Assembly (NCBI GenBank): GCA_048939765.1
Contig: JBHLPF010000003.1
Coordinates: 45,936-109,935, forward strand
DNA from: Promethearchaeota archaeon
Lineage (GTDB): Archaea > Asgardarchaeota > Thorarchaeia > Thorarchaeales > Thorarchaeaceae
Reading direction: 5' to 3'
DNA length: 64,000 nucleotides
Below, piece by piece: positions 34 through 27,822 of this stretch (position 1 is its first letter; every line of letters begins with the position of its first letter). The position numbers were made by a program, and so were the translations under genes. A model generated the notes under the pieces. It did no database searches and was not told the DNA's origin. It saw only the letters and a list, made by a program, of their open reading frames with translations.

Positions 34-531
34 TCAGGGCCAAGGCAATCCTATCCAATCAAGTATTGGCTCCAGAATCGATTCGTGATAAACCGCGATC
101 CCTCCCAATGCAGCGATTATGATTATCAATACTCCAGCAACAACTAAGCCTATCCCATAAGTGAGAAAACCTGAGGTCTTGTCCCACACTCTATCGCCAA
201 GTCTGGTTCGAAGAATAACTAGGAAGATATAGATCTCTGTTGCCACAATTGACCAGAGAATCTTGAATCTCATATAGGGGTCAATTATCAGTGCAACCAT
301 TGGCCAATCCAAGAAGCCTGTCGCCATCCCTACGAAGAGGCCGATGAGTGTTATTATGCTTCCCCAATAGATGAAGACATCAAACTCATGAAAGATCCTT
401 GCCATTCTTGTCCCGGGGGTTCTTATGCCATCTCGAAACACTAGCCTGAATACGATATTGAGCAATGCAATAACCGCTACAGCTGCTCCTATGCCGGTAT
501 GAAAGTGTACAAAGACTGGATGTAGTGCCAT
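34..531 (-). CDS. DUF2231-like membrane protein (possible heme b-binding)
   Basis: N-terminal LHPVFVHF motif, ~4 TM helices, C-terminal GGIAVY; ATG at 531 follows GAGGGTGA SD. Confidence 0.6.
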   Translation of the reverse strand: MALHPVFVHFHTGIGAAVAVIALLNIVFRLVFRDGIRTPGTRMARIFHEFDVFIYWGSIITLIGLFVGMATGFLDWPMVALIIDPYMRFKILWSIVATEIYIFLVILRTRLGDRVWDKTSGFLTYGIGLVVAGVLIIIIAALGGIAVYHESILEPILDWIGLPWP

Positions 532-543
532 GATAATCACCCT

Positions 544-1185
544 CTAGGTTCGGGCCCTCCTCAAAACAAACAAGCCTAAGATGGCAAGCACCACTGCCGA
601 AGCTGGAGTTATGGTGTACATCATCAGCTCCCATATGGCAATAAGCTCCTCCTGAGATGGTGTCGTTGGAGGGGGTGTTGTTGTAGTCGGCGGTGTGCTT
701 GTTGGGGGACTTGTTGTGGCAGTGTTCTCTGCCACATCGACATTTATGTCAACACTCCGGCCTACTCCTCCAGTTTCAGCAGACCAAATTCTGATTACGA
801 AGGATCCTACCGTCCGAGGTGTAAATGTGATTGACGCTTGGATCTCTCCTACGTTTCCATTTGCATCCTCAGCATCTCCATCCCAGACTACATCGTCAGA
901 GATTGTGAACTCCCCATTGTCAGCAACTCCGTCTTTAATGCTGATTGCGATATGTTCTGTACTATCGCTTGCGTCTATGATGAGCAGGAATGATACTCCC
1001 CTAGTTGCTTCAATCGTCCCAGTCGCATTCGTTGAAAGTGTAGTACCCACGGTTGTATGGCATCCCGCTTGTAGAGCGCAATTAGGATTGTAATCCGGTA
1101 TAGCGAAAGAACTGCTCGCCAAGATAAACACTGAGATGACCAGGGTCGCTATAACCAAGGTCATTCTGCGATGCTGCTTCTTCAT
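544..1185 (-). CDS. exported, C-terminally anchored protein with Cx5CH motif and Ig/Reeler-like domain (putative atypical c-type cytochrome)
   Basis: signal peptide MKKQHRRMTLVIATLVISVFILASSSFA, motif CALQAGCH, beta-rich domain, Thr/Pro linker, C-terminal TM; alternative start 1251. Confidence 0.55.
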   Translation of the reverse strand: MKKQHRRMTLVIATLVISVFILASSSFAIPDYNPNCALQAGCHTTVGTTLSTNATGTIEATRGVSFLLIIDASDSTEHIAISIKDGVADNGEFTISDDVVWDGDAEDANGNVGEIQASITFTPRTVGSFVIRIWSAETGGVGRSVDINVDVAENTATTSPPTSTPPTTTTPPPTTPSQEELIAIWELMMYTITPASAVVLAILGLFVLRRART

Positions 1186-1279
1186 CTGGTTGTCTCCATT
1201 GGTTCTGAACAAGGCTCTATATCGAGTTCGTTCGTCGTTGGCCAAGGCCATGGTTTCAATCCGGAACCACGCAACGCCA

Positions 1280-1293
1280 TTTTAAGCATATCG
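1280..1293 (-). promoter_or_regulatory. BRE-TATA promoter element (CGATATGCTTAAAA)
   Basis: near-identical element recurs at 53661-53674, with similar ones at 44726-44739, 49079-49092 and 58949-58962, each upstream of a - strand gene. Confidence 0.55.
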
Positions 1294-1408: not shown

Positions 1409-3115
1409 TTACCGATTGAGAATCCTATCAAGAACTCTCAACAAGGGAATTCCCACGGCCAGGGCCTGATTTATCGTCATCAGCTTAATGACTAATAGAC
1501 CTAACGCTCCGCCCACGAACGATAGCATCCAGATCAGTTGCACTTGAATAGCCGGGATTGGAAACGAAAAAACAAGGTTCACAGCCCATTCGAGTCCCAG
1601 GATCTGGGGGCCAAAGTAAAGCATGACGAATGCAAGAACGAAGCCCAAACCGAAGCCAAAGACCTGCGAATGCCATGCAGTTTGGGCTCGCCCTCCAAAG
1701 ACTTTCAGCGGATTCATCATATTATTGGGATCAATCTCTTTCTTCAGCTGTGACAGCTTCGCAATCTTCTCTTCACCGTAGAACTCTTTTGAGTGTCTGG
1801 TATTCCAGAGTGCTACCGCATAGGGATGTCCTTCATACTTTCCAGCCAAAGCAGCAATGTCAAAAGATCGGTGCCACCCTATTGTGTGCCTGATTTTCTT
1901 TCTCTCATCGTCAAGAATCCACACTAGGTAGGATGCCACTCCATCAGCGCCGATAGTTCCTTCAACGGCGAATTTCGAACTACCTAACTTGTTCAAGGTG
2001 TTTCGGTGAAGCTCAGGGAGGCGATCCACAGGAGTCGTGACCTCAGCTGGAATCAAACTAGGTCCTTGTCTCTTGAATCTCAATGGATACAATCTTTCAT
2101 CCCAATAGAAGTCTGCACGCTTCTCATCCAACATTATTCCATTATTCGCACTGACGAACTTCTCGATTGCTTCAATTCCATCATCATTATCATAGATGGT
2201 TCCATGTAGTGCTCCGGCGAGTACGAATTTATTCCATTCAGCGGGGAAGCCAATCAAGGTCACTAATTTAGAGGTGTGATTGCTGTCAAGATATCTTAGA
2301 TGATAAGGCAATGCGCCGTCTATCATGAGCTGAGCAGCTTTGGCGAGGTCCTCTATTGAGTCGAATGAGCATGCAAATGGACGAAGTTGGAGTTTGGGAA
2401 TGGTTCGAAGTGTGACCTTGGTAATAATGCCAAGAGTTCCATAGGTTTTGGAGAGTACTTCATTGAGTCTGATTTTGCCACCTGCTTTCTCAGAGAGCCA
2501 AGCAGTCCCTTCAGCTGCTTCATCCTGCAAATCATCAGACTGAGGTCCTAGGACTACTTCGCCAACTCGGACAATTTTGCCATTAGCCAGAACTGCTTCA
2601 ATTCCAACCACTTGATCACCAATCTCACCATGCTTGGCTGATCCAATGCCGAAACCCCCACTGGCTACGAAACCTCCAACTGTTGCCGCTGTTGCGCTTG
2701 ACGGATAGATCGGCAAAGTGGTGCCCATTCGCTCAAGAATCATCAGCAATTCCCGCCAGGTGATTCCTGCCTCAACCGTAACCGTGCAGGCATAGTCATC
2801 AAGATGTACAATCTTATTCATCTGCGTGAGACTCACGCAAAGTCCTCTCTTGACAGGAATAGAGCCTCCCCAGCCTGATGTTCCATTTCCCCTCGGAACA
2901 ATTGGCAGGTGATTCCTGCTTGCGTAGCGGAGAAGTAATTGCAGCGATTTCACTGTGACTGGTTGAGCGACTAAATCGAATTCATTCTTGATAATCTGAC
3001 TGGCTAGTGCTGGCAAATTGGCTGCATCTTCAGAGTATATGCGGCAGGTTTCACTGTCTGCAGTAATATTATCAGCTCCCACGATGTCCTCCAATTCCTG
3101 TGGCACGACCTTCAT
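1409..3115 (-). CDS. FAD-binding oxidoreductase (VAO/GlcD/D-lactate dehydrogenase-like) with C-terminal TM hairpin
   Basis: PRGNGTSGWGG, VEAGI, PSSATAATVGG, GTLGIITKVTL, DPNNMMNP motifs; two hydrophobic helices at C-terminus. Confidence 0.85.
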   Translation of the reverse strand: MKVVPQELEDIVGADNITADSETCRIYSEDAANLPALASQIIKNEFDLVAQPVTVKSLQLLLRYASRNHLPIVPRGNGTSGWGGSIPVKRGLCVSLTQMNKIVHLDDYACTVTVEAGITWRELLMILERMGTTLPIYPSSATAATVGGFVASGGFGIGSAKHGEIGDQVVGIEAVLANGKIVRVGEVVLGPQSDDLQDEAAEGTAWLSEKAGGKIRLNEVLSKTYGTLGIITKVTLRTIPKLQLRPFACSFDSIEDLAKAAQLMIDGALPYHLRYLDSNHTSKLVTLIGFPAEWNKFVLAGALHGTIYDNDDGIEAIEKFVSANNGIMLDEKRADFYWDERLYPLRFKRQGPSLIPAEVTTPVDRLPELHRNTLNKLGSSKFAVEGTIGADGVASYLVWILDDERKKIRHTIGWHRSFDIAALAGKYEGHPYAVALWNTRHSKEFYGEEKIAKLSQLKKEIDPNNMMNPLKVFGGRAQTAWHSQVFGFGLGFVLAFVMLYFGPQILGLEWAVNLVFSFPIPAIQVQLIWMLSFVGGALGLLVIKLMTINQALAVGIPLLRVLDRILNR

Positions 3116-3117
3116 TG

Positions 3118-4314
3118 CTACTCGCCTCCTTTCTCATACCCCGAACGCAATGAATTTGCCACCAGCTGTGTAATGTCTAGAATTTGAATGCTATAACCTA
3201 GGGTAATTGTTGCTAGATCGAATGCCATTTCACATCTGGGGCATTCTGTCACAAGTAGCGATGCTGGAGTGACGGATGCATCCCTCAATCGCATCTCCGC
3301 AATCTGTGCGGACAAGTGTGGATCAATCATATTCAGAAGGGCATGCGATCCGCAACATCTGGTGTCTTCCTCAGAAGGGACCATTTCGACTCGATAGATT
3401 CCAGGAATCCTCTCTATCACGTTCCTAGGTTCTTTTGAAACACCGAGGACCCTAGCTGAAATGCAAGGATCGTGATAGGTGGCAGTAATCATAGGCTGCT
3501 CTTCGAAAGAAAGACGCCCTTTCTCGATGAGCTGGTTAAGGAACTGTGAAGCAGTTAGGAGCTCCATCTTTCTCACAGCTGAAGTTCCTGAGCTCTTATG
3601 CATCGAACTAATCCAGGTGCTAGCACACGATGGACAACTAAACACTACTTTCCTTACGCCGAGATCAGCAAGGGCTTGCGCATTCTTCTCAACCATGGTT
3701 GGAGTTCCTTCGGGTTCTCCAGCCCAAAGCAGAGGAGCTCCACAACATGATTCGTTCTCTCCGAGAAGAGTATATTCGACTCCTGCATGTTCCATGATTC
3801 TTATCATCGACTTGGCTACGGCATGGAGCTGGTGCTTCAGTGATACATTACATCCAAGAAAGTATGCGACATCTGCTTTTGCATTGATTCTCGGCTCAAC
3901 AATGTCCTCAATGCCCTCTGCCCACAGCATTCTGTTGGATTTGCCTATGGAAAATGGGTCGCCAGTTTTCTTGATTGACTCGCTGGCAAACTTGACTGGT
4001 GGTGGAGTAAGGTCTCTTTCTTTTGCCTCCTCGCGCATTAGTTCCCAGAACCTATCGAGCCTGATACTAGTTGTACAGACAGTCGTGCAATGTTCGCACA
4101 GTGTGCAGAGGAAGAGCTTCCTCGTAAAATCTGGATTGAACTCGGCTTCCTTTTCTAAAATCGATTTTGTAATGCTTAGTTTTCCTCTAGGGCCGTATGG
4201 TTCCCATCTCATCTGGCGAAACACTGGACATACGAGTGTGCAATTACCACAAGATGCACAGACGTACGGGTCGTTCTTCTGCCCGCTTTGTTCAATCGGC
4301 CCAGCTCTAGTCAT
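3118..4314 (-). CDS. HdrD/GlcF-like Fe-S protein (2x[4Fe-4S] + 2 CCG domains)
   Basis: CASCGNCTLVCP, CTLCEHCTTVC, SCCG, YHDPC, RCCG, ECPRC; start probably MTRAG at 4314 (track start 4398). Confidence 0.88.
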   Translation of the reverse strand: MTRAGPIEQSGQKNDPYVCASCGNCTLVCPVFRQMRWEPYGPRGKLSITKSILEKEAEFNPDFTRKLFLCTLCEHCTTVCTTSIRLDRFWELMREEAKERDLTPPPVKFASESIKKTGDPFSIGKSNRMLWAEGIEDIVEPRINAKADVAYFLGCNVSLKHQLHAVAKSMIRIMEHAGVEYTLLGENESCCGAPLLWAGEPEGTPTMVEKNAQALADLGVRKVVFSCPSCASTWISSMHKSSGTSAVRKMELLTASQFLNQLIEKGRLSFEEQPMITATYHDPCISARVLGVSKEPRNVIERIPGIYRVEMVPSEEDTRCCGSHALLNMIDPHLSAQIAEMRLRDASVTPASLLVTECPRCEMAFDLATITLGYSIQILDITQLVANSLRSGYEKGGE

Positions 4315-4373
4315 TCCAAAGGAATGTCCATTATCTCGCCTTAAGACTGTTAGGCTAGGTTCAAAAATGAAAG

Positions 4374-4409
4374 GACACCGGAGCACACATACAGGCACTC
4401 CGGATTGTC
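4374..4409. other. intercistronic stem-loop
   Basis: GACA-CCGGAG ... CTCCGG-AT-TGTC inverted repeat directly downstream of the 4417 stop. Confidence 0.35.
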
Positions 4410-4416: not shown

Positions 4417-5748
4417 CTAGGACAGGTCCTGAATCATCTCGCCAGCGCAGGCAATTCCGGACCTAGAAGCCGCTTCCATGCTGGCATAGTATATTCCACA
4501 GTTGGCAAATGACCCAGCAACATAGAGTCCTTCGACCCCGGTCCTATTCGTCTTGAGTCGGTCCTCCAAGATGCCAGGGGGCTGAGAAAGGACTGACCGC
4601 CAAATCTTCCAGCTCTTCTTCCAGGTGACCTTCTCTTCGACCCCAGGGATGAGTTCTTTGAGTTCACTGAGGATTTCATCGGTCGCTTCCTCATCACTCA
4701 TCTTCAGCAGTTCTTTATCGATACTGGTGACAGTCAATAGTGATTCGCCAATAGGAGCGAGGACTCCAGAGACCCGTTTCGCCTCAGCTACAATGTTGAT
4801 CTTCCTGCCAGGTACAAAGGCACCAACATTGAAGTCAAGCACACGAGATGAAAGGCCGAAGTAGGCTACGGTTGATGGAGCATAAGTGAATTTACCAACA
4901 GCCTTGCCAAAATCGGCCGGTAGCTTGTTCATGTTCACAAGATTCGGAAGAAGGTCTATTGGTGTGGTCACCACGACTGCATCGGTATCAACGTGCTGAT
5001 CCTTGCCATCTTGCTCGTAGTCGACTCCTTGAACCTTGCCGTCCTCAATAATGATTTGCTTGACCGTGGAGTTCACCTTTGGTTCTACCGCAAAGTTGCG
5101 TGCTTGAAGCATGAGCGTGTATGGGACACTCCCCAGTCCTCCTCGCTCAGGATACATCGCCTTGAATCCATCCTCATATGCGAACCTCTGCTTCTCAGAG
5201 TATAGATACTGACCAGCAGAAACCTCGTCCGGAGTCATAAAGGTCACAGTTCTTATCAGTGGATCATAGAAGTCCTCTTGGATGGACTCAGCTATGCCCT
5301 TTTCATCTGCATATTGAGAAAAGGTCATCTTATCTAGTTCAAGGAATTCTTCGTCAGGTCTGTTCATACTCTCTTGGACAAGCAAACCCAGACGTGCCCT
5401 ATCAGCAACAGGCAATAATCCGAACTTGGCGAGGTCCACCGCAGACTTGCGGACAATGTGTCTGTCTCCGCTCTTGAGCCAGACAGCTCCCTCTCCAACC
5501 GTGGTCATTCTGATTCCACTTCGTTCGAGAATTGGAATCAGTGATTTGAAACCACCAACAAAGAAGTGGAGGCCCTGATCAAACACGTAGCCAGATTCGG
5601 TGAAGGATCTGGCTCGTCCGCCCACAGTCTTCTCTTTCTCTAGGATTGTACATCGCGCCTTAAGCCCCTTAAGCTCCAGAGCACAGCTGAATCCAGCAAT
5701 GCCCGCGCCTACAACCACAACCCTTGTCCCCTTTCTTGATTCGCTCAT
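4417..5748 (-). CDS. FAD-dependent oxidoreductase, flavin amine oxidase / phytoene desaturase / protoporphyrinogen oxidase superfamily
   Basis: VVVGAGIAG, EKEKTVGGRARS, FDQGLH, GLYVAGS, SMEAASRSG motifs. Confidence 0.85.
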   Translation of the reverse strand: MSESRKGTRVVVVGAGIAGFSCALELKGLKARCTILEKEKTVGGRARSFTESGYVFDQGLHFFVGGFKSLIPILERSGIRMTTVGEGAVWLKSGDRHIVRKSAVDLAKFGLLPVADRARLGLLVQESMNRPDEEFLELDKMTFSQYADEKGIAESIQEDFYDPLIRTVTFMTPDEVSAGQYLYSEKQRFAYEDGFKAMYPERGGLGSVPYTLMLQARNFAVEPKVNSTVKQIIIEDGKVQGVDYEQDGKDQHVDTDAVVVTTPIDLLPNLVNMNKLPADFGKAVGKFTYAPSTVAYFGLSSRVLDFNVGAFVPGRKINIVAEAKRVSGVLAPIGESLLTVTSIDKELLKMSDEEATDEILSELKELIPGVEEKVTWKKSWKIWRSVLSQPPGILEDRLKTNRTGVEGLYVAGSFANCGIYYASMEAASRSGIACAGEMIQDLS

Positions 5749-5755: not shown

Positions 5756-6880
5756 TCACTCCTCTACAAGAGATGACTGTGCAAGATCCAAGATTAACTC
5801 GTCTAGCTGAATTACTTCCAAGTCTGTTTCACGTGCACAGTAGCTCAAGTTCTTATAACATGATATGCATGTAGTAATCATTCCATCGACACCTAGCTCA
5901 ACGGCTTCATTAACCCTTCTCTTCCCAACATCTTCAGACAATTGCGGGTCTAGGACCGTGAGGAATCCGCCACAGCAATTTGCGTTCTCTTTATTATTAA
6001 GCAGCTCTACGAACTCTAGATTCGGAATTGCTCTGATGATCTCTCTTGGTTGCTCATATATGCCAAGTGCCCTTCCAAGATGACAGCTGTCATGAAATGT
6101 ATAGCTTCCTTCTTTCCCCTTGAAAGTCAAGACACCATTTCGCACCATATTTGAAAGAACATCGACAGTATGGTGTATCTGAACATCGAATTCCGGAATG
6201 ACTTGCGCATAGTGTTCAGCTAGTGTTCCATAGCATCCTCCACAGCCTGTAACGATATGTTGGATGCCTGCTTTCTTGAACATCTCATAGTTCTCGCGAG
6301 CTATTTTCTCAAAGCCAGCATCGTCACCAGCCCAGTATGACATGAGACCGCAGCAGACCTCACTGGGAACATACCCTGCGTCGACCTTCAGTTTCTGCAA
6401 CATATCTACAACCATCTCAGGTTGATCTGGAAACCAGAAGCTACCCATACAACCACTGAAGATGGCTGTATTGGATTTCTCGGGCAATTCCAAGTCTTCA
6501 GCCCAGATGGTTCGGTCATCGGATTCGTATCCTATGAATGGCGTTCCTTCCTTGTCAAGCCAATCAATGACTTTCACGAGACTCTCTGACATTTCTCCTC
6601 CAGTCTTGAGGAGATTGGCCTTAGCTTCATGCCATATGTGAGTCACAGGCACTCCAGCTGGACAAATAGCTTCGCACCTTCTGCAATCAGCGCAATATAG
6701 CCTCTGCAGCAATTCCTGAGGGGGATTTCTCATTTTTTCTCTATATGCCCTAAGTGCTCTGATCTTTCCTCCCGGACTGTCGAGTTCAGAGCCCAACTCA
6801 ATATACATTGGGCATGTATCGCGACAATAGTTGCAGGACCCACAGTGGCGCATAGTTTCCTTGTCTATGTCAACTCTCAT
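5756..6880 (-). CDS. HdrD/GlcF-like Fe-S protein (2x[4Fe-4S] + 2 CCG domains)
   Basis: CGSCNYCRDTCP, CADCRRCEAICP, VCCG, FHDSCHLGR, NCCGG, TCISC. Confidence 0.88.
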   Translation of the reverse strand: MRVDIDKETMRHCGSCNYCRDTCPMYIELGSELDSPGGKIRALRAYREKMRNPPQELLQRLYCADCRRCEAICPAGVPVTHIWHEAKANLLKTGGEMSESLVKVIDWLDKEGTPFIGYESDDRTIWAEDLELPEKSNTAIFSGCMGSFWFPDQPEMVVDMLQKLKVDAGYVPSEVCCGLMSYWAGDDAGFEKIARENYEMFKKAGIQHIVTGCGGCYGTLAEHYAQVIPEFDVQIHHTVDVLSNMVRNGVLTFKGKEGSYTFHDSCHLGRALGIYEQPREIIRAIPNLEFVELLNNKENANCCGGFLTVLDPQLSEDVGKRRVNEAVELGVDGMITTCISCYKNLSYCARETDLEVIQLDELILDLAQSSLVEE

Positions 6881-6892: not shown

Positions 6893-8353
6893 TCATCTCC
6901 CCACATATCTTGATAGGCGCCTTATTCCAGCGGCCATTAGGAACAACACATTCATCCTGAAGTATGACGTCATGCATGAGGTCACACGGTCTGGATTCAT
7001 TATATTGCTCCGATCCCACTTTTCTTTTGCTGCCTTCATTAATTCTAATCTCTCTGGATATGCACGCTTCATATAGATTGAATTCTGAAGGCCAATCGTG
7101 TAAGGCCCACCGCCAAGCGAAATAGCCTTCTTCACCATTTTATGCAATATGCCTTTGCTGCTTATGAACTTGAGATACTGGTCGGGATTCAGCATTGCCA
7201 TCAATTCAGCTCTAACCTTTCCTTGACTTCCGAGCATTGCGAACCAGATTGCAGGCACCTTGTGTGATTTCTTGTAGGACTCATACCTGTTGAGTAGGTC
7301 ATAGAGCTTGTCTACCTCAAGTGAAACCTCCTGAAACATCAAGGTGTCACAGTGCTCCTTGGGGTTGAACTCGCTGTCATAACGTAGACTCCAATCATGA
7401 GCTGCATATTCAACACCAAGTTCCATTCCTCCATTGTCTGCAATTGTCCTCTTGAGTTCATCTATTGGGACACTTTCCGGCTGATTGGGATAGACCGCTG
7501 TCAGGACATAATTGCCCTTCTCTAGTGGATTGCTGTAGCTCTGGAAGTCCTTGTCTGCAATCTTGAGATGGATCGGTTTCTGATCAATAGCAGCAATTTG
7601 CCGCATTGCATTGCACACATGCTCCAGGTGGTCAAATCCGTAGCTGAACGGAATGAAATCATCGGGCTTATCATGGATTCTCATTTTCACCTCTGTGATG
7701 ACTCCAAGTATGCCATAAGACCCAAAGAATAGTCCTATCTCATCGCCACTGATTGTGACCAATTCGCCATCAGCATTCACGACCGTCAATTCAAGGATAT
7801 TCTCGATCAGAGCTCCGTAGTAGGGAGTGCCAATGCCTGCTGTACCCCCGCATCCGATCCATCCAGCGATTACAGCTGATTTAGCGCTAGTTGGATAAAT
7901 GCCAATGGTCTTCCCTTGTTTTGCGAGCTCAACATCGAGTCTGTCGAAGGGAACCCCTGGTTCAAGTCTGACATAGCCTTCATCTGTATTGATTTCAAGG
8001 ATGGCATCCATCCGCTTGATGTCAAGAGATATCCCGCCGCGTGTTGGGCTCGATGACCCCAGGCAACTTGATGCACCGCCTCTTGGGATGACGGGAATAC
8101 CGTGAGCAGCCGCAGTTGTAACAACTTCCCTCACCTCATCCACATTCTCGACTCGTACAACATAGTCGACCAGATACTTCCCTTTCCAGCGGTAGTGGAA
8201 TTGTGGGAGGGCTGCAGGATCGCCGCTATACACTATCCTCTCCAACAGCATGTTCGAAACTCGATCCGGACTTACGGCTGCTGCAAGGTCTCGCATGACT
8301 TGGTCATCATATTTTGGAGTCTGGGTTTCCACTTGTTCTTCAGTCATAATCAT
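6893..8353 (-). CDS. FAD-binding oxidoreductase (VAO/GlcD-like)
   Basis: PRGGASSCLG, LEPGV, PTSAKSAVIAG, GSYGILGVITEV, DRSNIMNP; start taken at TGATG overlap 8353 (or 8347), since the longer track start overlaps the upstream gene. Confidence 0.85.
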   Translation of the reverse strand: MIMTEEQVETQTPKYDDQVMRDLAAAVSPDRVSNMLLERIVYSGDPAALPQFHYRWKGKYLVDYVVRVENVDEVREVVTTAAAHGIPVIPRGGASSCLGSSSPTRGGISLDIKRMDAILEINTDEGYVRLEPGVPFDRLDVELAKQGKTIGIYPTSAKSAVIAGWIGCGGTAGIGTPYYGALIENILELTVVNADGELVTISGDEIGLFFGSYGILGVITEVKMRIHDKPDDFIPFSYGFDHLEHVCNAMRQIAAIDQKPIHLKIADKDFQSYSNPLEKGNYVLTAVYPNQPESVPIDELKRTIADNGGMELGVEYAAHDWSLRYDSEFNPKEHCDTLMFQEVSLEVDKLYDLLNRYESYKKSHKVPAIWFAMLGSQGKVRAELMAMLNPDQYLKFISSKGILHKMVKKAISLGGGPYTIGLQNSIYMKRAYPERLELMKAAKEKWDRSNIMNPDRVTSCMTSYFRMNVLFLMAAGIRRLSRYVGR

Positions 8354-19371: not shown

Positions 19372-20516
19372 TGGGAGGTGTCATGTTGCAAATAGACTTC
19401 TTCGCTTGGCTTCAAGGAATCCCTTCGTGGATCTACGGTGTGATTCAGTGGTTCTTCTACCTTGTCAGCGGGATATTCTACTGGATATGGGGGATATTCA
19501 CTTGGATCTGGGCAGCTCTATTTGATGTAGCCAACTTCTTTTTCCTGATTCGAGCAATACTATTCCCGGGTCTTGTCTTCATCCTCATGACGATTATCTT
19601 CGCAGTCTGGTATACTCGCAAGCTCTGGGGTAGAATTCAAGACAGACGAGGTCCTTTCCACCTAGGGAAATACGGAGGTCTCCAGCTCTTCGCAGACGCA
19701 ATCAAGCTTGTGGGGAAAGAGACTATCATTCCCGATAAGGCGAGGCGTTGGATGTACAGATTTCTTCCATCCTTGCTGCTTCTTGTCGTACTCATACCTT
19801 TCGCATTCATTCCATGGGATCCAGTATGGTACATCGCTGACCTCTCAGTCAGCCTCGTGCTTGTCTTTGCATTCTTGACAGCTGTTCCTGTAATTGCGTT
19901 GCTGTCCGGATGGATAAGCGGTTCAAAGTACACCCTAATTGGTGGGTTTAGAGCAGCTAACAATCAGTTCGCTAGCGAGATTCCGCTAATCATCTCATCC
20001 GTTGGTCCTGCGATGATTGCTGGGTCTCTTAGCGTAATGGGAATCTCGATGGCTCAGTCTAATATCTGGTTCATCTTCCTGCTACCAATCAACTTGGCCA
20101 CCTTCTTGGTCGCATCTATCGCATCCGTTGGTACATTTCCATTCGATGCCCCAGTTGCTGACTCGGAGGTCATCTTTGGTTGGAGGACTGAGTTCAGTGG
20201 TATTTACTTCACGCTCACTTATTTCGCGGAGTTCGCCGAGCAGGCGCTTTACTCAGCACTCATAGTTGCACTATTCCTTGGCGGGTTCCAAGGACCAGAT
20301 TTCTTGCCAGGGAGTGTGATATTCATCATCAAGTTCCTGATCGTATTCTTCTTTTTCGTCGTTGTGACTTCATCGTTCCATCGACTTAGACAGGACCAGA
20401 TTGTATACTTCTGCTGGAAGTATCTACTTCCATTGTCAATCCTGAACGTTATGCTTGTGATGTTGGGAATCGCCAACATACCCCTGCTACAAGCAATTAT
20501 TGGAATAGGAGGCTAG
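19371..20516 (+). CDS. nuoH: complex I-like subunit H
   Basis: RKLWGRIQDRRGP, GLQLFADAIKLVGKE, SKYTLIGGFR, PFDAPVADSE..GWRTEFSG, RLRQDQ. Confidence 0.93.
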   Translation: MGGVMLQIDFFAWLQGIPSWIYGVIQWFFYLVSGIFYWIWGIFTWIWAALFDVANFFFLIRAILFPGLVFILMTIIFAVWYTRKLWGRIQDRRGPFHLGKYGGLQLFADAIKLVGKETIIPDKARRWMYRFLPSLLLLVVLIPFAFIPWDPVWYIADLSVSLVLVFAFLTAVPVIALLSGWISGSKYTLIGGFRAANNQFASEIPLIISSVGPAMIAGSLSVMGISMAQSNIWFIFLLPINLATFLVASIASVGTFPFDAPVADSEVIFGWRTEFSGIYFTLTYFAEFAEQALYSALIVALFLGGFQGPDFLPGSVIFIIKFLIVFFFFVVVTSSFHRLRQDQIVYFCWKYLLPLSILNVMLVMLGIANIPLLQAIIGIGG

Positions 20517-20522
20517 AGCAAG

Positions 20523-20954
20523 ATGGGATTCTTCAGAAACCTAGGTGACATATTCCAGATATTGAGACATATATTCCGTCAAGTGATGTCCCGTCCATTC
20601 ACGTACTTCTATCCATTCGAGGACAGGGAATATCCCGAGAGGACTCGTGGCAGGCACATTCACGTGCGAGAGAATTGCACAGCCTGCATGCAGTGTGTAC
20701 GAGCTTGTCCTGTTGTAGCTATTAGTATCGATAAGAGTGATAAGAAGTTCGAGAAGGACGCAGCCCTAACCTTTGATTATACAAGGTGTATCTTCTGTGG
20801 CTTATGCGTTCAAGCCTGCAGATTTGATGCACTATTTCACACCCAGGTGGTAGATATCAGCGAGGGAGAGAGGGAGGACTTGGTCTACGGTCCTGACAAG
20901 ATAGAGACTCTCGATAGAGACCCGCTTGAGTGGCGTGGAAGGAGGTTCCGTTGA
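20523..20954 (+). CDS. nuoI: complex I-like subunit I (2x[4Fe-4S])
   Basis: TYFYPFE..RTRGR, CTACMQCVRACP, CIFCGLCVQAC. Confidence 0.93.
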   Translation: MGFFRNLGDIFQILRHIFRQVMSRPFTYFYPFEDREYPERTRGRHIHVRENCTACMQCVRACPVVAISIDKSDKKFEKDAALTFDYTRCIFCGLCVQACRFDALFHTQVVDISEGEREDLVYGPDKIETLDRDPLEWRGRRFR

Positions 20955-22471
20955 TGCAGCTAGCATTCGAGTTCCCATTTATGACCTTGTCCTTACTAGT
21001 CCTCTTTATCGGAGGGCTTTTGATCTACCTCTTCCGCGGTCGACTCGAAAAGACGTCTGGAAAAATCGCAGTTGGCTTCTCGGCGGTGGGGGCATTGCTA
21101 ATGGTGCCTCCATTCTACCGCATCCTGGTCGAAGGTGGTCGGGCGGCTGAGAAGGTTTCGTGGTCAGTTGTGCTCGGAGAGTTCGGTCTCTATTTGGATG
21201 AGATTGCCTTCCCAATTACGTTCGCAGTTGTTGTCTTGGGATTCCTTTCAGTCATCTATGCCGTAGGTTATACTGAGCATACTGAGAACAAGCCCACCTT
21301 CTTCGCAAACACACTATTCTTCATAATGGGCATGCAAGGAGTGACGCTTGCCACCAATTTGCTGGAGTTCTTCATTTTCTGGGAAATCATGCTTGTCCCA
21401 TCATACTTCCTGATTCTGTTTTGGGGCTTGCCTGAGACCCGAAAACGAACCGCCCTCAAGTTCTGGCTCTATACACAGGCTGGAGCGGTCTGTATTCTGA
21501 TCGCCCTAGGACTTTTGTACTTCTTCACAGGCACCTTTGAACTCTACACCATACTAGCAATGGCTCCTGCCATATGGTCAGACCTCCGACTATTGCAGAT
21601 TATTTTCATCTTGTTCGCTGCTGGCTTTTTAGTCAAGATGGCAGCTTTCCCTGTGCATTGGTGGTTGCCTCCAGTTCACGCCGAAGCTCCGACTCCTATC
21701 TCAGTTCTGCTATCCGGAGCTATGATTGAGACTGGTGCATATGCTCTCGTCCGTTTCGGAATCATAACGCTTGGACCTGCAGCTGCGTCTCTCTCATTCT
21801 GGATTGGAGTACTTGGTGTGGCTACGATGTTCTACGGAGGAGCTATGGCGCTCGTCCAGAAAGACATCAAGAGACTGCTAGCCTACTCATCGGTCTCCCA
21901 GATGGGCTACGTTTTGTTTGCACTCGGAATGATAACCACAATGGGGGTATCCGGTGGTCTATTCCACCTCATCAATCACGCCTTCAGCAAGGGTGTCTTG
22001 TTTATGACTGCTGGAGCGGTGATTCATCAGACTCATCTAAGGGACGTCGACAAGATGGGCGGTCTCTCAAACAAGATGCCCATCACCGCATTTGCCGCGG
22101 CTATCGGCGCAATGAGCATCGCAGGGAGCCCCCCTCTCTCTGGATTCGCCAGTGAGTGGATGATGTTTCTCGGCGGCTTTGACGCCGCTCAGATGGGACC
22201 AGGAGGCCTTGCAAGACCTGAGTTCTTCTTCCTGTCCATCTTGGCTGTTTCAAGCTCCATATTGAGTGCCGGCTACATGCTCCGGTATCTCTGGAAGGTC
22301 TTTCTTGGGCCTCATCCAGCTGAACTGGAGGATGTCAAGGAGAGCTCGGACTGGATGACTGCTCCAATGATCATCCTTGGAGTTCTCATCGTGTTATTTG
22401 GAATATTCCCAGGATTGGCACTGGATGTCATAGTTCCTGGCGTAGAAGGAATATCTACCCTGCTTCCATGA
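20954..22471 (+). CDS. extra antiporter-like subunit (NuoM/MrpD/HyfB family)
   Basis: FFIFWEIMLVP, VKMAAFPVHWWLPPVHAEAPTP, KRLLAYSSVSQMG, NHAFSKG, PPLSGFASE. Confidence 0.88.
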   Translation: MQLAFEFPFMTLSLLVLFIGGLLIYLFRGRLEKTSGKIAVGFSAVGALLMVPPFYRILVEGGRAAEKVSWSVVLGEFGLYLDEIAFPITFAVVVLGFLSVIYAVGYTEHTENKPTFFANTLFFIMGMQGVTLATNLLEFFIFWEIMLVPSYFLILFWGLPETRKRTALKFWLYTQAGAVCILIALGLLYFFTGTFELYTILAMAPAIWSDLRLLQIIFILFAAGFLVKMAAFPVHWWLPPVHAEAPTPISVLLSGAMIETGAYALVRFGIITLGPAAASLSFWIGVLGVATMFYGGAMALVQKDIKRLLAYSSVSQMGYVLFALGMITTMGVSGGLFHLINHAFSKGVLFMTAGAVIHQTHLRDVDKMGGLSNKMPITAFAAAIGAMSIAGSPPLSGFASEWMMFLGGFDAAQMGPGGLARPEFFFLSILAVSSSILSAGYMLRYLWKVFLGPHPAELEDVKESSDWMTAPMIILGVLIVLFGIFPGLALDVIVPGVEGISTLLP

Positions 22472-22476
22472 GGTGA

Positions 22477-24801
22477 TTGACAGTGTTGCTAGGACTCCCC
22501 TATTGGCTTATCCTCGTAATTCCACTGCTTGGCTCCCTCCTCGTTCCACTTGTTGGAAGGTTCAGTGAGCGTGCACGAGACTGGACTCCTGCGATCCTAA
22601 TGGGAATCTCTATGGTCTTCTGCTGGTCGCTGCTGCCTGAAATCGGCCATCCTACTCAGACAACAAGCTGGATGTGGATTGAAGTTCTAGGGCTCGAATT
22701 TGAAGTGCTTCTAGATCCGCTCTCTGTTGTGATGGGCATTCTAGCCAGCACCCTCTGTTTCCTCATCTATGTCTATTCAACCGAATATATGGCTCATGAA
22801 GGAGACCGTGACCGGTTCTTCTTCCTCATGCTTGCCTTCGGCGGCGGAATGCTCACGCTCGTGCTCAGCAACAATCTGCTGATCGCATTCATCGGATGGG
22901 AGATCATGGGATTCTGCTCCTACGGTTTGATAGGATTCTGGAATGACAAGAGGAACCCTCCCGAGACCGACCCGACAGACATTCACTACACAAACCCACT
23001 TCTTCAATTCAAGACCGAGGGACAGTATAACACTCACTGCGGGACCAAGGCATTCGTTGTTACCCGTATCGGTGATGCATTCATGCTTGGTGGAATCCTG
23101 ATTCTCTTCGTCTTCACCGGCACTTTCTCATTCACCGAGATGGCTGCTGATGCCCAATCTTGGTGGAGCACCATGGCTGGCATTGGCATGCTAGTGCCTA
23201 CATTCTTGCTTATCTTCATGGGCGCTATTGGTAAGTCTGGACAGGCACCATTGCAGGTTTGGCTACCAGAGGCTATGGCGGGTCCAACAAGCGTATCTGC
23301 TCTCATCCACGCTGCAACGATGGTCAAGGCGGGAGTCTATATCACCGCACGATTCCTAGTCACAATGGTATCAGCAGCTGGCGGTGAGGGAAATGGAGGA
23401 GAACATATTGCTGGTCTACAGGCAATTGGCTTTGAGGCTGCACTGACGTTCTTCATCTTTGTAGCGATTATAGGCGGCATAACTGCCCTCATGACTGCGA
23501 CCATGGGAATGGTCTCAAACGAGCTCAAGCAGATACTGGCGTTCTCAACACTCAGCCAGCTTGGATACATGATGCTCTCACTAGGTGTGGGTGGCGTTCT
23601 TCAGGCCGAGGGACTTCATTTCGGTGATGCATACTTGAGTGGCGTTATGCATGTGATTTCGCATGGTGCCTTCAAGGCTCTTTTGTTCCTTGCATCAGGA
23701 GGAGTCATCCATGCTGTGCATTCGAAGTTCATTACCAAGATGGGGGGTCTCAAGCAACACATGCGTAAGACCTTCATCGTTATGTGGATTGGTGTTCTCG
23801 CTCTTGCAGGCATACCGCCGTTCTCAGGGTTCTGGTCAAAGGACTCTATCATCGAGTATGCCTATGAGCTGGCGGTTGAATGGCCGAATCCGTTAGGTTG
23901 GATGCTATTCTTCTTTGCAGTCCTAGCAGCCGCCTGCACACTATTTTATAGCCTCCGACTCATGGGCATCACTTTCTATGGCCCTTCCAAGGAGAGTCAC
24001 GACCATCACGAGTCACACGGCTCACACGAGAATGAGGAATCCGAAGAACATGAAGAGTTACATTATGATGACCTAGATGAGCAAGAAGAATCGCATGATG
24101 ATGATTCAGAGGAGCATGAAGAACCGCATGACAGCCCCTCTGAAGAGCAGGATCACTCAACTCCTCATGATCCGGGACCGGCAATGATGGTGCCATTGTA
24201 TATACTAGCGGCTTTCACAATCATTGCATTCCTCGTCTTCCCATTCGTTCAGAACATTGTGCTTGAGGAGAGCCACACCTGGGCTGAGAACTTTGCTCAC
24301 ATGATAGAAGTCAAGCTAACCTACCCGGGCATCGTGCCGTTCATGATTACACTTGGCGCACTCGCTTTGGGTGGAATTCCTGGATATGTGATGTACATCA
24401 GGGGTGCAGACACTCCCAACACTTGGGTTCCGGAGAAAGGCTTTCGAAGGAGAGTTCATAATTTCCTCAAGCACCGATGGTACATCAACGAAATGTACTA
24501 TGGATTACTAAACCGATTCCTGAGTGCTGCCGAGCGTTACCGAGTGAATGTTGACGATAAGATCATCGATGGCATCGACTTCAAGTCCGCTGACACAGGC
24601 AAAGGCCTTGCCACCAAATTGAGGTGGTTCGATGACAATGTGGTTGACGGCTTTGCTGAGGGGGTATCTACGTACAGTGTTGCCGCTTCAGAGTCTGGCC
24701 AATCTGCACAGACTGGTCGAGTCAATGACTACGTTGGAGTGATCATGTTCGGGATTGGGATACTTGTCATCATTGTTCTTCTGTCGCTGGGGGTGCTCTA
24801 G
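22477..24801 (+). CDS. nuoL: complex I-like subunit L (His/acid-rich insertion)
   Basis: GWEIMG, KAFVVTRIGD, GKSGQAPLQVWLPEAMAGPTSVSALIHAATMV, AFSTLSQLG, GFWSKD, QTGRVNDY. Confidence 0.93.
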   Translation: MTVLLGLPYWLILVIPLLGSLLVPLVGRFSERARDWTPAILMGISMVFCWSLLPEIGHPTQTTSWMWIEVLGLEFEVLLDPLSVVMGILASTLCFLIYVYSTEYMAHEGDRDRFFFLMLAFGGGMLTLVLSNNLLIAFIGWEIMGFCSYGLIGFWNDKRNPPETDPTDIHYTNPLLQFKTEGQYNTHCGTKAFVVTRIGDAFMLGGILILFVFTGTFSFTEMAADAQSWWSTMAGIGMLVPTFLLIFMGAIGKSGQAPLQVWLPEAMAGPTSVSALIHAATMVKAGVYITARFLVTMVSAAGGEGNGGEHIAGLQAIGFEAALTFFIFVAIIGGITALMTATMGMVSNELKQILAFSTLSQLGYMMLSLGVGGVLQAEGLHFGDAYLSGVMHVISHGAFKALLFLASGGVIHAVHSKFITKMGGLKQHMRKTFIVMWIGVLALAGIPPFSGFWSKDSIIEYAYELAVEWPNPLGWMLFFFAVLAAACTLFYSLRLMGITFYGPSKESHDHHESHGSHENEESEEHEELHYDDLDEQEESHDDDSEEHEEPHDSPSEEQDHSTPHDPGPAMMVPLYILAAFTIIAFLVFPFVQNIVLEESHTWAENFAHMIEVKLTYPGIVPFMITLGALALGGIPGYVMYIRGADTPNTWVPEKGFRRRVHNFLKHRWYINEMYYGLLNRFLSAAERYRVNVDDKIIDGIDFKSADTGKGLATKLRWFDDNVVDGFAEGVSTYSVAASESGQSAQTGRVNDYVGVIMFGIGILVIIVLLSLGVL

Positions 24802-24802
24802 A

Positions 24803-26347
24803 ATGCAGCTAGATCTCATCCAAAATCTTATCGCAATGTTGCCTATGGAAAGCATCCTCCCCTTCATGCTTTTCCTACCACTTGTAGCAGCATTCATCGC
24901 TTACATCGTTGGAGGCAGAGGAGCTAGAGCAATTACCATTGCCATTACTTTCTTCGAGCTGTTGCTTTCAATCGTCCTTATTGTCGCCATTTTGCCTAAT
25001 CCTGGAGCAATGTGGTATGAATGGACATTTACACTCAGTACAGTGCAATTCGCAAGCTGGACCGCGGTTCTTCAGATATTTCTTGGAGTCGATGGAATCT
25101 CAGTTGCTATGGTGTTCCTATCAAACCTCGTAGTCTTCATTGCGGCTCTTAGCTCAAATCATATCCACAAATCCAGGCACCTGTATTACATGTTCTTCCT
25201 GATGCTCCAGACAGGGCTGCTTGGCGTTTTCATGTCATTTGATCTTATCAGCTTCTTCATTTTCTGGGAGTTGGTCCTGATACCGATGTTCTTCATAATT
25301 GGTAGATGGGGAGAAGAGGGATGTGAACATGCAGCTGTCAAATTCTTCATCTATACACATCTTGGATCGGCTGTGATGCTGGTCTCATTCATGGCACTGT
25401 TCTTCCTGGGACCCGGTACATTCAACATGATTGCTATCAAGGCTGCACCCATTGCAATCAACATCCAAATTGGTTTTGCTCTGGCTGTCTTTCTGGGTGC
25501 TGGCGTCAAGCTCCCAGTGTTTCCCTTGCACAACTGGCTTCCATGGGCCCACGTTAAAGCACCGACTCCTGGTTCAGTGATACTCGCTGGGATACTCTTG
25601 AAGATGGGAGGATATGGATTCATCAGACTAGGTCTCTGGATGGTCCCGCAGGGATTTGCTCGACTCAGTATCCCATTCGCTGTCCTCGCGGTCTTCACAT
25701 GCATCTATGCTGCATTCGTAGCAATGGGCCAGACTGACGTGAAGTCAATGGTCGCCTACACATCGATAAACCACATGGCTTGGGTGTTGCTTGGAGTTGC
25801 CATTGGAGGATTTGCCATCGGTGGTGGAGCTACGGAAGGTCAGCTCTTCTCAGCTAGTCTTGCAGTTCAGGGAGCGGTTTTCATGATGGTATCTCATGGG
25901 ATGATCTCCTCTGTCATGTTCATCCTCGCCGGCCAGCTGAAGTACTCAGCTGGAAGCAGATTGATACCTGATGTCATGGGTCTGATGACAAAGGCTCCTA
26001 GGATGTCGGCAGTCTTTATCCTCGCAGTCTTCGCAGCCTTTGGATTGCCCGGAATGAGTGGATTCATTGCGGAAGCATTAGTGCTCTTTGGCTCTGTGAA
26101 TGTCTATATCTGGTCTGGCTTCATTGCGTTCGGCATCTTTGTCACAGTGGGCTATCTCCTCTGGACACTGAACCGAATTGTGTTTAGTGACCCTGATTCT
26201 GAGAAGGAAGTTACTGAAGCACCATGGAGTGATCTTATTGCGCCAATCTTGATGATGATACCAGTGATTATCCTTGGGCTCTGGCCAGACCTTGTCCTTA
26301 ATCTAGTGATACCAATAGTCAATGACATGATAGGGGTGATTCCATGA
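24803..26347 (+). CDS. nuoM: complex I-like subunit M
   Basis: LGVDGIS, FFIFWELVLIPMFF, VKLPVFPLHNWLPWAHVKAPT, LLKMGGYG, GLPGMSGFIAE. Confidence 0.92.
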   Translation: MQLDLIQNLIAMLPMESILPFMLFLPLVAAFIAYIVGGRGARAITIAITFFELLLSIVLIVAILPNPGAMWYEWTFTLSTVQFASWTAVLQIFLGVDGISVAMVFLSNLVVFIAALSSNHIHKSRHLYYMFFLMLQTGLLGVFMSFDLISFFIFWELVLIPMFFIIGRWGEEGCEHAAVKFFIYTHLGSAVMLVSFMALFFLGPGTFNMIAIKAAPIAINIQIGFALAVFLGAGVKLPVFPLHNWLPWAHVKAPTPGSVILAGILLKMGGYGFIRLGLWMVPQGFARLSIPFAVLAVFTCIYAAFVAMGQTDVKSMVAYTSINHMAWVLLGVAIGGFAIGGGATEGQLFSASLAVQGAVFMMVSHGMISSVMFILAGQLKYSAGSRLIPDVMGLMTKAPRMSAVFILAVFAAFGLPGMSGFIAEALVLFGSVNVYIWSGFIAFGIFVTVGYLLWTLNRIVFSDPDSEKEVTEAPWSDLIAPILMMIPVIILGLWPDLVLNLVIPIVNDMIGVIP

Positions 26348-27822
26348 TGCTACAATTCTCAACGATAATCGATGCTATCAGCGACATCCTGAGTCCCTTC
26401 TTTGCACTTGTCCCGGCGGAGTGGCTGGTATCGCTGCCAGCATTGACACTTATCCTATTCGGAATCATTGCACTTATTGTTGGAATGAGAAGAAGTCCAT
26501 TGGCAGTAAGTTTCATTGGTCTATTCCTTGCGGGTCTTGAGATGATTCTCATCGACCCAGGTTCTTCATTTGGAGGGCTATTCGTAAGAGACATGTTTGG
26601 TGATTTCTTCATCTGGATCATTCTTGTTGTCGCGTTTATTATCTTGCTCTCGTCAACTACATATGGAGGAAATAGAGGCACATACAACTTTCTCCTCATG
26701 ATGTCATTTGCTGGCGCAATATGGGTCGTCATGGCGACTGATCTTATTGCCCTGTATCTTGCCTGGGAATTAATGAGTACTCCAACATACATACTCGTCG
26801 CCTTAGGACCTCATCGAGGAGCCATAGACGGAGCAACGAAGTACTTCGTCATGGGACTGGTGTCTTCAGGCCTTATCGTATTTGGAATCGCACTAGTCTA
26901 TGGCGCTACAGGTTATACAAGCTTTGCAGCGATAGGCACATTCGTGGCTTCTGTGTGGAGTGCCGGTTCACCTTCCGCCTATGCAATGCTTCTTGCTATG
27001 GTGCTATTCCTGATAGGCTTCGGATTCAAAGTCGGGGTGTTCCCAGGATGGATGTGGGTTCCGGATGCATACGCCACCGCCGATGGAAGCGTTACAGGTT
27101 ATCTCGCCGGCGCGACCAAAAAGACCGGTGTCAGTGCCTTGCTCAGAATACTGCTTGTAGGATTTGTTGCAGCGCAGTTGGAATGGATGCCTGTGGTTGT
27201 GACCATCTCCATCCTTACAATGGTCATTGGAAACATCCTTGCGCTCTCACAACGTAATATCATGAGAATGTTTGCTTTCTCGTCGATTATGATGATGGGC
27301 CTCCTTTTCGTGGGGATAGCTGCAGGGACTGCTTTCGGAGCAGCAGCTGCGATGTTCACTGCGTTTGCCCATGCTCTCATAAAGACAGGTGCATTCATCC
27401 TCGTCTGGGCATTAGCTGTGTCTATTGGAAAAGAAGTCACATATGAAGATCTGAAAGGGCTCAGTACCCGTGCTCCGGTTGTGGCCCTACTAATGGCCGT
27501 TCTGGTCTTTGCGCTGGCAGGTGCTCCTTTCACAGCAGGATTCTGGTTCAAGTGGTTCCTATTGCCTGGAGCTGCGGTTGATGCCGGACTTTGGTGGTTG
27601 GCAATAATTGCTGTACTGAACTCAGTGTTCGCACTTGGCTATTATCTGAGGATTCTCAGGTATTGCTACTTCATGGAACCAACAGAAAGCACAATCCTGC
27701 GCATACCAACAATTCCTCTTGTCGCAGTGGTACTCGCAGTCGTGGGCACAATAGTAATTGGCATATTCCCAGGTCTAATCCTAGACTATGCATCATTAGC
27801 AGCTGGAGTCCTCGTCCCATAG
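26344..27822 (+). CDS. nuoN: complex I-like subunit N
   Basis: DLIALYLAWELMS, KYFVMG, GFKVG..WVPDAY, GNILALSQ, AGAPFTAGFWFK, YYLR. Confidence 0.92.
   Translation: MMLQFSTIIDAISDILSPFFALVPAEWLVSLPALTLILFGIIALIVGMRRSPLAVSFIGLFLAGLEMILIDPGSSFGGLFVRDMFGDFFIWIILVVAFIILLSSTTYGGNRGTYNFLLMMSFAGAIWVVMATDLIALYLAWELMSTPTYILVALGPHRGAIDGATKYFVMGLVSSGLIVFGIALVYGATGYTSFAAIGTFVASVWSAGSPSAYAMLLAMVLFLIGFGFKVGVFPGWMWVPDAYATADGSVTGYLAGATKKTGVSALLRILLVGFVAAQLEWMPVVVTISILTMVIGNILALSQRNIMRMFAFSSIMMMGLLFVGIAAGTAFGAAAAMFTAFAHALIKTGAFILVWALAVSIGKEVTYEDLKGLSTRAPVVALLMAVLVFALAGAPFTAGFWFKWFLLPGAAVDAGLWWLAIIAVLNSVFALGYYLRILRYCYFMEPTESTILRIPTIPLVAVVLAVVGTIVIGIFPGLILDYASLAAGVLVP

Follow-up and report, generated by a model that had tools for sequence, protein, structure and literature searches.

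A GlcD-NuoB fusion and a linked cassette of candidate cytochrome genes at a headless complex I-like locus of Thorarchaeaceae

Several described redox systems resemble parts of the locus analyzed here, in which a headless complex I-like (nuo) gene cluster of an Asgard archaeon contains a NuoB subunit fused to a GlcD-like flavoprotein. The locus lies in a window (the whole stretch of DNA that was analyzed) of 64,000 nt from Promethearchaeota archaeon (Thorarchaeaceae; assembly GCA_048939765.1, contig JBHLPF010000003.1, positions 45,936-109,935, forward strand). The divergent neighbor of the fusion, here called CCG_c, encodes an HdrD-like iron-sulfur protein with CCG domains, and further GlcD/CCG gene pairs, putative cytochromes and Ccm genes for haem-c maturation are found on the same contig. 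The gene map was based on an open reading frame (ORF) listing and Pfam scans of the window, and the genome to which the window belongs is 88.5% complete.

A headless Fpo-like complex of the Methanomassiliicoccales, together with HdrD, has been proposed as a ferredoxin:heterodisulfide oxidoreductase (PMC7374477). The Thor locus is similar in encoding an 11-subunit complex I homologue without NuoEFG/FpoF, which in the Methanomassiliicoccales is thought to work with an HdrD-type CCG protein and no HdrE. It differs in that NuoB is covalently fused to a GlcD-like flavoprotein, the CCG gene is a fixed divergent neighbor, the host is not a methanogen, four antiporter-like subunits are present, and NuoD carries an invariant ERxCMLE motif. 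Complex I variants of the '2M' type, which have one more antiporter-like subunit, are reportedly the subject of Chadwick et al. 2018, and the Thor complex agrees with these in its four Proton_antipo_M proteins and its unusually long NuoL (774 aa); unlike them, it is archaeal and headless, has a fused NuoB, and follows the order B...A-J-K-C-D-H-I-(M)-L-M-N. The sulfane-sulfur reductase MBS of Pyrococcus (6u8y) provides the best solved match of NuoD, its MbsL subunit scoring 204 bits vs 178 for the complex I 49-kDa subunits, and the Cys of the NuoD motif ERLCMLE aligns with an MbsL Cys, so that one hydrogenase/MBS-type Cys is kept. However, the C-terminal Cys of MbsL is missing in NuoD, and the Thor membrane arm is of the Nuo type (A, H, J, K, L, M, N).

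The combination of a GlcD-fold FAD domain with a 2×[4Fe-4S]/CCG module is shared with Dld-II/YdiJ-type enzymes, GlcDEF, GlpABC and LldEFG. Unlike in the Dld-II/YdiJ-type enzymes, the two halves are separate genes in Thor, the flavoprotein is fused to NuoB, the metal triad is missing, and the NCBIfam equivalog cut-offs are missed. Tmc, Hmc, DsrMKJOP and HdrDE resemble the Thor genes in that a CCG protein of the cytoplasm is encoded together with a membrane subunit rich in His and a haem-c protein that faces outward, and each of the five CCG proteins of the island has TmcB, HmcF and DsrK among its weak family matches. In contrast to these complexes, Thor has a domain of four transmembrane helices (4-TM) without a NarI or HdrE family match, an outer protein with one haem motif on Ig-like domains, and an added GlcD protein. 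Hydrogenase-like and Hdr-decorated forms are described in a recent survey of complex I-like enzymes from Asgard archaea, and neither the GlcD-NuoB fusion nor the cassette described below was found in the passages searched (10.1101/2024.07.04.601786). In the literature covered, which excludes most subscription journals, no description was found of the fusion, its CCG partner, or Thorarchaeal c-type cytochromes or Ccm genes.

Compared with these systems, the locus is, on balance, best explained as two tiers, a core and an accessory cassette, with a GlcD/CCG oxidoreductase bolted onto a pump. The two-tier island, the persistent linkage of the cassette to the pump, and the family-wide haem motif of the cassette are new here. 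The core consists of the following features in the window; names refer to Pfam matches unless another basis is given.

11540-12763 (ORF to 12829), minus strand: CCG_c, HdrD/GlcF/TfrB-like protein with Fer4_8 and two CCG domains (Pfam, orthologue alignment)
12764-13000, between the two arms: divergent intergenic spacer of 237 bp with A/T-rich boxes
13001-14941 (ORF from 12986), plus strand: GlcD-NuoB fusion with FAD domain, amphipathic tail (about residues 450-495) and NuoB core (Pfam, alignment)
14938-15483, plus strand: conserved 3-TM protein with an acidic Pro/Glu tail (from the ORF listing)
15579-15938, minus strand: small conserved 3-TM protein, encoded opposite to the fusion unit and nuoA, which flank it (from the ORF listing)
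16272-20954, plus strand: nuoA, J, K, C, D, H and I
20930-27822, plus strand: four antiporter-like subunits of 513, 774, 530 and 492 aa, the NuoL-type subunit being that of 774 aa

The redox genes, the fusion and the nuo cluster lie where a sequence-only reading of this DNA had placed them. The same reading had described a divergent region of ~220 bp at 12782-13000; the spacer is present, while its bounds are now 12764-13000, because orthologue alignments moved the start of CCG_c to 12763 (Met23) and that of the fusion to 13001. The boundary at 12782 matches an alternative upstream ATG of CCG_c. The small minus-strand membrane gene at 15579-15938, which had not been mentioned, interrupts the plus arm before nuoA.

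Pfam matches were obtained for all eleven subunits (homologues of NuoA, B, C, D, H, I, J, K, L, M and N), and the fusion is the only NuoB of the cluster. NuoE, NuoF and NuoG were not found in the nuo cluster by the Pfam scan, and the sole NuoF-like gene of the genome is on another contig (C80). The fusion keeps the four Cys ligands of cluster N2, as its GCC, GQCA and PGCPP motifs align with Nqo6 and NdhK; its NuoB domain is nearer to Nqo6/NdhK (140 bits) than to MbsJ (104 bits), and the alignment begins at about residue 24 of Nqo6. NuoI has 8 Cys. NuoD (18235-19371) keeps the His pair of GPQH..AHG, and the quinone-ligating Tyr of the RLDY motif is replaced; both ERxCMLE and the C-terminal SLDPYPGWWDR are invariant across 24 Thor orthologues. 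When 400 Asgard genomes were surveyed, the full-length fusion occurred only in the family of the window, in 12 of its 16 genera (labelled g1, g2 and so on), with 73-98% identity. The gene at 14938-15483 always lies directly 3' of the fusion, and its product is a candidate for an extra pump subunit, while the gene at 15579-15938 is kept in 28 related loci, mostly with 46-94% identity. Neither of these two membrane proteins, nor the protein u131, has a Pfam match at E<=5, and the two may be lineage-specific subunits or assembly factors.

The sequence-only reading had proposed the 11540 protein, CCG_c, which is encoded head-to-head with the fusion, as an Fe-S partner, and four lines of comparison agree with this proposal. 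Among 86 genomes of the family, CCG_c orthologues occur only in g1-g12 and g14, which is exactly the distribution of the GlcD orthologue. Where CCG_c and the fusion share a contig, they are divergent neighbors within 10 kb (48/48 genomes); the spacer measures 157-362 bp in 34 of these, and an insert of 1.4-9.6 kb with 1-3 additional CXnCH-Ig genes (encoding Ig-like proteins with a CXnCH motif) is present in the other 14. In g14, whose genomes have no orthologous nuo cluster, one operon in a single direction contains geranylgeranyl reductase (GGR), polyprenyl synthase (PPS), MenA-like, CCG_c and unfused GlcD (56% identity) genes, followed by an ADP-forming acetyl-CoA synthetase gene, the same gene that closes the island in the window. 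The fusion GlcD and CCG_c also rank their paralogues alike (e > a > d > b). The nearest non-Thor homologues of the fusion GlcD are single-chain GlcD-Fer4-CCG proteins of 870-1030 aa. CCG_c has 8 Cys for two cubane clusters and 2 × 5 Cys in its two CCG domains, and the Cys at positions 18, 21, 24, 31, 75, 78, 81, 85, 163, 198, 199, 235, 238, 290, 326, 327, 364 and 367 do not vary among 19 orthologues. TfrB is the family that CCG_c matches best, and none of the named equivalog cut-offs (TfrB, GlpC, GlcF, TmcB, HdrB) is reached by the CCG proteins; the TfrB score, for example, is 167 vs 385. From these sequence comparisons, CCG_c is very probably the physical Fe-S subunit of the fused GlcD domain.

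The core, found in all 12 fusion-bearing genera, comprises a NuoEFG-less pump with four antiporter-like subunits and a NuoB fused to a GlcD-like flavoenzyme, probably at the membrane surface, for which CCG_c would serve as an HdrD-like subunit with four Fe-S clusters; genes for a MenA-like prenyltransferase, a polyprenyl synthase and a geranylgeranyl reductase adjoin it. The GlcD/CCG pair may be the older part, a self-sufficient membrane-associated oxidoreductase that was joined to the pump through gene fusion. Electrons would be exchanged between the pair and the pump locally, at the membrane surface, through a prenylated carrier or the acceptor pocket of the pump and not through NuoI; we regard this local exchange as an even call. 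It is preferred over a wire to NuoI because the ~45-residue amphipathic segment between GlcD and NuoB is conserved and is also the C-terminal tail of the unfused g14 GlcD, because that stand-alone enzyme needs no pump and adjoins MenA, and because the fusion joins the membrane-proximal N-terminus of NuoB. Solved structures of complex I place this N-terminus where the peripheral arm meets the membrane, a long way from the distal NuoI cluster. The whole GlcD clade looks membrane-attached, because the tail is conserved and paralogues a and e carry hydrophobic helices (3-4 C-terminal TM helices) at the tail position. All GlcD proteins have the FAD_binding_4 and FAD-oxidase_C domains, and the score with glcD TIGR00387 is 127.7 (cut-off 567.9).

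The UbiA-family gene near CCG_c bears on the nature of such a carrier. It passes the menA model TIGR00751 (108.4 vs 102.15 bits) and stays below the cut-offs of the other MenA models. We also considered that the UbiA, PPS and GGR genes are plain lipid-synthesis genes; the MenA-type score makes this role less likely for the UbiA member.

The second tier occupies the left part of the window and continues upstream in locus L001, the directly upstream part of the island on the same contig, which has its own coordinates. The sequence-only reading had counted exactly three GlcD-like and three CCG proteins, with two pairs adjacent. The adjacency was confirmed, but the count is an artefact of the window edge, since the window starts inside the island: five genes of each kind are on the contig, the two additional pairs being directly upstream (L001 13878-19963). 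The island measures ~47 kb, and ~19 kb of it hold 5 of the roughly 14 FAD_binding_4 genes in the genome. The genes of this part are as follows, listed together with the core genes that lie among them (the UbiA-family gene, PPS and GGR, and the two optional PNPOx genes).

34-540, minus strand: TM168, 4-TM protein of the membrane whose start, HPxFVHFHTG, is conserved (ORF, orthologue alignment)
544-1251, minus strand: CX5CH_Ig, exported protein, anchored by a C-terminal TM segment, that has one C-X5-CH motif, a beta-sandwich domain and a Thr/Pro stalk; it probably starts at Met23 (1185)
1409-3115, minus strand: GlcD_a, FAD_binding_4/FAD-oxidase_C (GlcD-like) protein with 3 C-terminal hydrophobic helices (Pfam)
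3118-4398, minus strand: CCG_a, 2×[4Fe-4S] ferredoxin motif and two CCG domains, adjoining GlcD_a (Pfam)
4417-5748, minus strand: amine-oxidase/phytoene-desaturase-type (HpnE-like) flavoprotein, flanked by two CCG genes (Pfam)
5756-6880, minus strand: CCG_b, Fer4 and two CCG domains, adjoining GlcD_b (Pfam)
6893-8353 (ORF to 8518), minus strand: GlcD_b, divergent GlcD-like flavoprotein (Pfam)
8353-9546 (ORF to 9576), minus strand: CX4CH_Ig_TM, with signal anchor, C-X4-CH, two beta-sandwich domains and a 4-helix membrane domain
9694-10182, minus strand: PNPOx-like split-barrel flavin-binding protein (Pfam)
10183-11436, minus strand: DUF7530 (6 TM) fused to a PNPOx-like domain (Pfam)
L001: CCG_e, GlcD_e, 4-TM protein u164, GlcD_d, CCG_d
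L001: UbiA-family (MenA-like) gene, PPS, GGR
L001: CcmA, CcmB, CcmC, small membrane protein, CcmE, FMN reductase, CcmF
L001: 726-aa exported protein (u726); membrane-anchored multihaem-motif protein

Within this part, each sub-operon is led by a CXnCH-Ig gene and/or a His-rich 4-TM gene, followed by GlcD and CCG genes, and the genes are tightly packed. TM168 belongs to the operon CX5CH_Ig-TM168-CCG_e-GlcD_e, and the stop codon of CX4CH_Ig_TM and the ATG of GlcD_b (8353-8351) share one base (TGATG). The HpnE-like gene is the best conserved gene of the cassette, with 78-85% identity across genera.

Linkage was evaluated in 31 loci retrieved via the fusion protein, onto which all island proteins were mapped, and longer flanks were compared in ten genomes. 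The core genes are always together: MenA-like/PPS/GGR, the two optional PNPOx genes, CCG_c, the fusion, the two small membrane genes and nuoA-N. The DUF7530/PNPOx and PNPOx genes come after CCG_c in most, but not all, relatives. The cassette, ~20 kb in size, has a conserved internal order: multihaem protein, u726, CcmF, FMN reductase, CcmE-A, GlcD_e/CCG_e, TM168, CX5CH_Ig, GlcD_a/CCG_a, HpnE-like gene, CCG_b/GlcD_b and CX4CH_Ig_TM. It adjoins the core in g1, g3, g6, g9 and g12, so that ~30 genes keep together. At least four arrangements occur: the cassette lies upstream of MenA, is split around this gene, separates the fusion from the gene that follows it, or lies downstream of the last antiporter gene. 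The linkage of the two arms in relatives, which the sequence-only reading had expected, is therefore borne out by the synteny comparison, and the clustering exceeds chance, because the gene set stays together in five genera despite the rearrangements. The cassette is optional but stays with the pump where it is present. In these five genera, it holds Ccm system I, a membrane-anchored cytochrome with 7 haem motifs and two to four additional GlcD/CCG pairs, and its products may, like Tmc/Hmc/HdrDE-type complexes, transfer electrons between flavoenzymes in the cytoplasm and the surface of the cell.

The putative cytochromes that had been named in the window carry CX5CH and CX4CH motifs, and no canonical CxxCH was found in the island ORFs inside the window. 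The designation gained support from outside the window, where a Ccm system, a multihaem cytochrome and an invariant CXnCH motif were found. All 20 CXnCH homologues examined in related loci have one C(X2-6)CH at about residue 36-93, after the signal anchor, and in many of them the motif is a canonical CXXCH; an N-terminal TM or signal segment is present in the CXnCH proteins. For the 8353 protein (CX4CH_Ig_TM), 120 database relatives were compared, all from Thor-type metagenome-assembled genomes (MAGs). Every N-terminally complete one (114/114) has a C(X2-5)CH motif, with spacings of X2 in 63, X3 in 3, X4 in 39 and X5 in 9, and an alignment of 53 sequences shows no exception to the Cys, Cys and His of the motif.

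CcmA, B, C, E and F are located 20-38 kb upstream on the same contig. CcmE (L001 7414-7803) has CPSKY instead of the bacterial haem-binding motif HxxxY, a variant that we take to be the one known from archaea and sulfate reducers. The membrane-anchored cytochrome upstream has six CxxCH and one CX6CH, that is, 7 haem motifs, and shows NrfA/c554-type Pfam matches. Because a full Ccm system and this cytochrome share the contig, the CXnCH proteins, judged by their sequences, are likely to attach haem c.

In the AlphaFold model of the 8353 protein (pLDDT 83), a helix at the N-terminus is followed by the motif region, which is disordered, by two beta-sandwich domains and by four membrane helices. 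The membrane domain keeps His266, 297, 342, 345 and 363 in all 53 aligned sequences, and the paralogue u164 shares four of these. A fold search with the whole protein returned tandem Ig/FN3 matches only. TM168 conserves His7, 12, 14 and 51 in 7 orthologues, and its Atlas feature score of 0.85-0.87 to DUF2231 clusters is a lead only. At E<=5, no Pfam match was obtained for TM168, the 4-TM domain or u164.

As a separate observation, the spacer that separates CCG_c from the fusion is variable and a hot spot of genes for haem-motif proteins of the surface. In the insert loci L004, L007, L008, L013, L014, L016, L022 and L029, proteins of 300-1480 aa with a single N-terminal CXnCH and Ig-like domains are encoded.

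Several results weigh against parts of the two-tier explanation. For a prenylated carrier, MqnA/D, MenB and MenD were not found in the 88.5%-complete genome with the models PF02621, TIGR01929 and TIGR00173, and a quinone acceptor is not established, because NuoD is without the quinone-binding Tyr. The GlcD domains are without the His-His-Glu metal site of D-2-hydroxyacid dehydrogenases: an alignment to mouse LDHD places Tyr, Val and Ala at these positions, H-x6-H and GEHG were not found in five sampled close homologues, and the triad is missing in all 26 aligned sequences. Regarding CCG_c, one MAG (L006/G377) has it on a separate contig, and the CCG halves of 39 fused homologues match the five CCG paralogues about equally, CCG_e best, so these Rosetta-stone fusions support GlcD-CCG pairing only in general. 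For the cassette, CX4-5CH spacings are unusual for haem c, and a fold search with the isolated 4-TM domain gave generic 4-helix bundles (Z<=12.5; STEAP, CcmF, cox III), none standing out. Because these matches are generic, haem b binding by this domain is something that we can only infer from its sequence. Finally, four genomes, belonging to g4, g5, g11 and, in one case, g12, yielded neither CcmF nor the CX4CH-Ig-4TM protein; three of them are 95-97% complete and one 85%, and other g12 members have the cassette. Since these genomes carry the fusion, the pump appears to need no cytochromes, and the full chain to extracellular haem proteins, as the sequence-only reading had it, is plausible but not obligatory.

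Three other explanations were weighed against local exchange at the membrane. GlcD might oxidize a substrate and CCG_c relay the electrons directly from FAD to NuoI and N2, which was the main proposal of the sequence-only reading; the pair would replace NuoEFG/FpoF, so that the oxidation drives pumping. Indeed, no other input module is encoded in the cluster, all 12 genera have the covalent fusion, and the four cluster-binding motifs of CCG_c would be enough for a relay. However, the fusion point at the NuoB N-terminus would be poorly placed for it, judging from established structures, the GlcD tail is a conserved membrane-surface element that the stand-alone enzyme also has, and a 2-hydroxyacid-type donor could not, on thermodynamic reasoning, pay for five pumping units with a menaquinone-like acceptor. 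Other headless complexes, moreover, use ferredoxin and need no such module (PMC7374477), and we consider the direct wire unlikely. If the electrons instead ran from ferredoxin to NuoI and left through CCG_c/GlcD to a disulfide, an oxo-acid or another soluble acceptor, the Methanomassiliicoccales would offer a precedent in their proposed Fpo-like/HdrD ferredoxin:heterodisulfide oxidoreductase (PMC7374477). Such an output module would fit the ten Cys of HdrB/HdrD-type CCG domains, all kept in CCG_c, as well as its best family match, TfrB; no known pathway for a carrier head group was found, and the acceptor site of NuoD is non-canonical. Nevertheless, the g14 CCG_c/GlcD operon stands alone without a nuo cluster, and the MenA-like gene is always adjacent. 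We know of no route from N2 to a CCG cluster in any complex I-type enzyme, and an output module is improbable.

The last alternative is that there is no functional chain: the extra GlcD/CCG pairs would be ordinary catabolic dehydrogenases, each for another substrate, the Ccm genes and the multihaem protein would serve an unrelated reductase, and only the region would be shared. The four fusion-bearing genomes mentioned above, the varying position of the cassette relative to nuo and the NrfA/c554-type matches of the multihaem protein are as expected for such a coincidence. Against it, the cassette is directly beside the nuo/MenA core in 5/5 genera checked that carry it, despite at least four rearrangements, and the CXnCH/4-TM genes share operons with GlcD/CCG genes, in one case with a stop/start overlap. 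A neighborhood without a functional chain is improbable, and the two-tier arrangement with local exchange at the membrane remains our preferred explanation.

Other genes of the window were recorded as side observations. A Ras/Roc-family small GTPase, of a kind typical of Asgard archaea, is encoded directly after the last antiporter gene (28028-28702). At 33762-39257, a protein of 1831 aa with a bacterial Ig-like (Big_1) domain is probably a surface protein. A protein with a LarA-type lactate racemase N-terminal domain is encoded at 49156-50553, 21 kb downstream from the island, and may be of interest if 2-hydroxyacids are substrates of the GlcD-like enzymes. An ORF at 61884-63989, which reaches the window edge, combines an aldehyde:ferredoxin oxidoreductase C-terminal domain with an AMP-binding (acyl-CoA synthetase-type) enzyme.

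Thorarchaeia are usually modelled as fermentative and are drawn without cytochromes or a respiratory chain, and the locus points to respiration-like electron transport in a Thor-type Asgard archaeon. In its widest form, which we put forward only tentatively, several Thorarchaeia genera would possess a respiratory island of ~45-50 kb encoding up to five membrane-bound GlcD/HdrD-type enzymes, each with a different membrane partner: three would feed monohaem-c/Ig/His-rich 4-TM conduits leading to a surface multihaem cytochrome, and one would be fused to a five-module pump. If this is true, the conduits would permit extracellular or interspecies electron transfer, and the pump could run forwards, in respiration, or backwards, in reverse electron transport driven by the proton-motive force with syntrophic production of H2 or ferredoxin. 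If the cassette is active, electrons can cross the membrane to outside acceptors or partner cells. The fusion is a natural handle on how new redox modules are grafted onto complex I, and the way in which Asgard archaea handle electrons, by fermentation, syntrophy or respiration, bears on models of the origin of eukaryotes.

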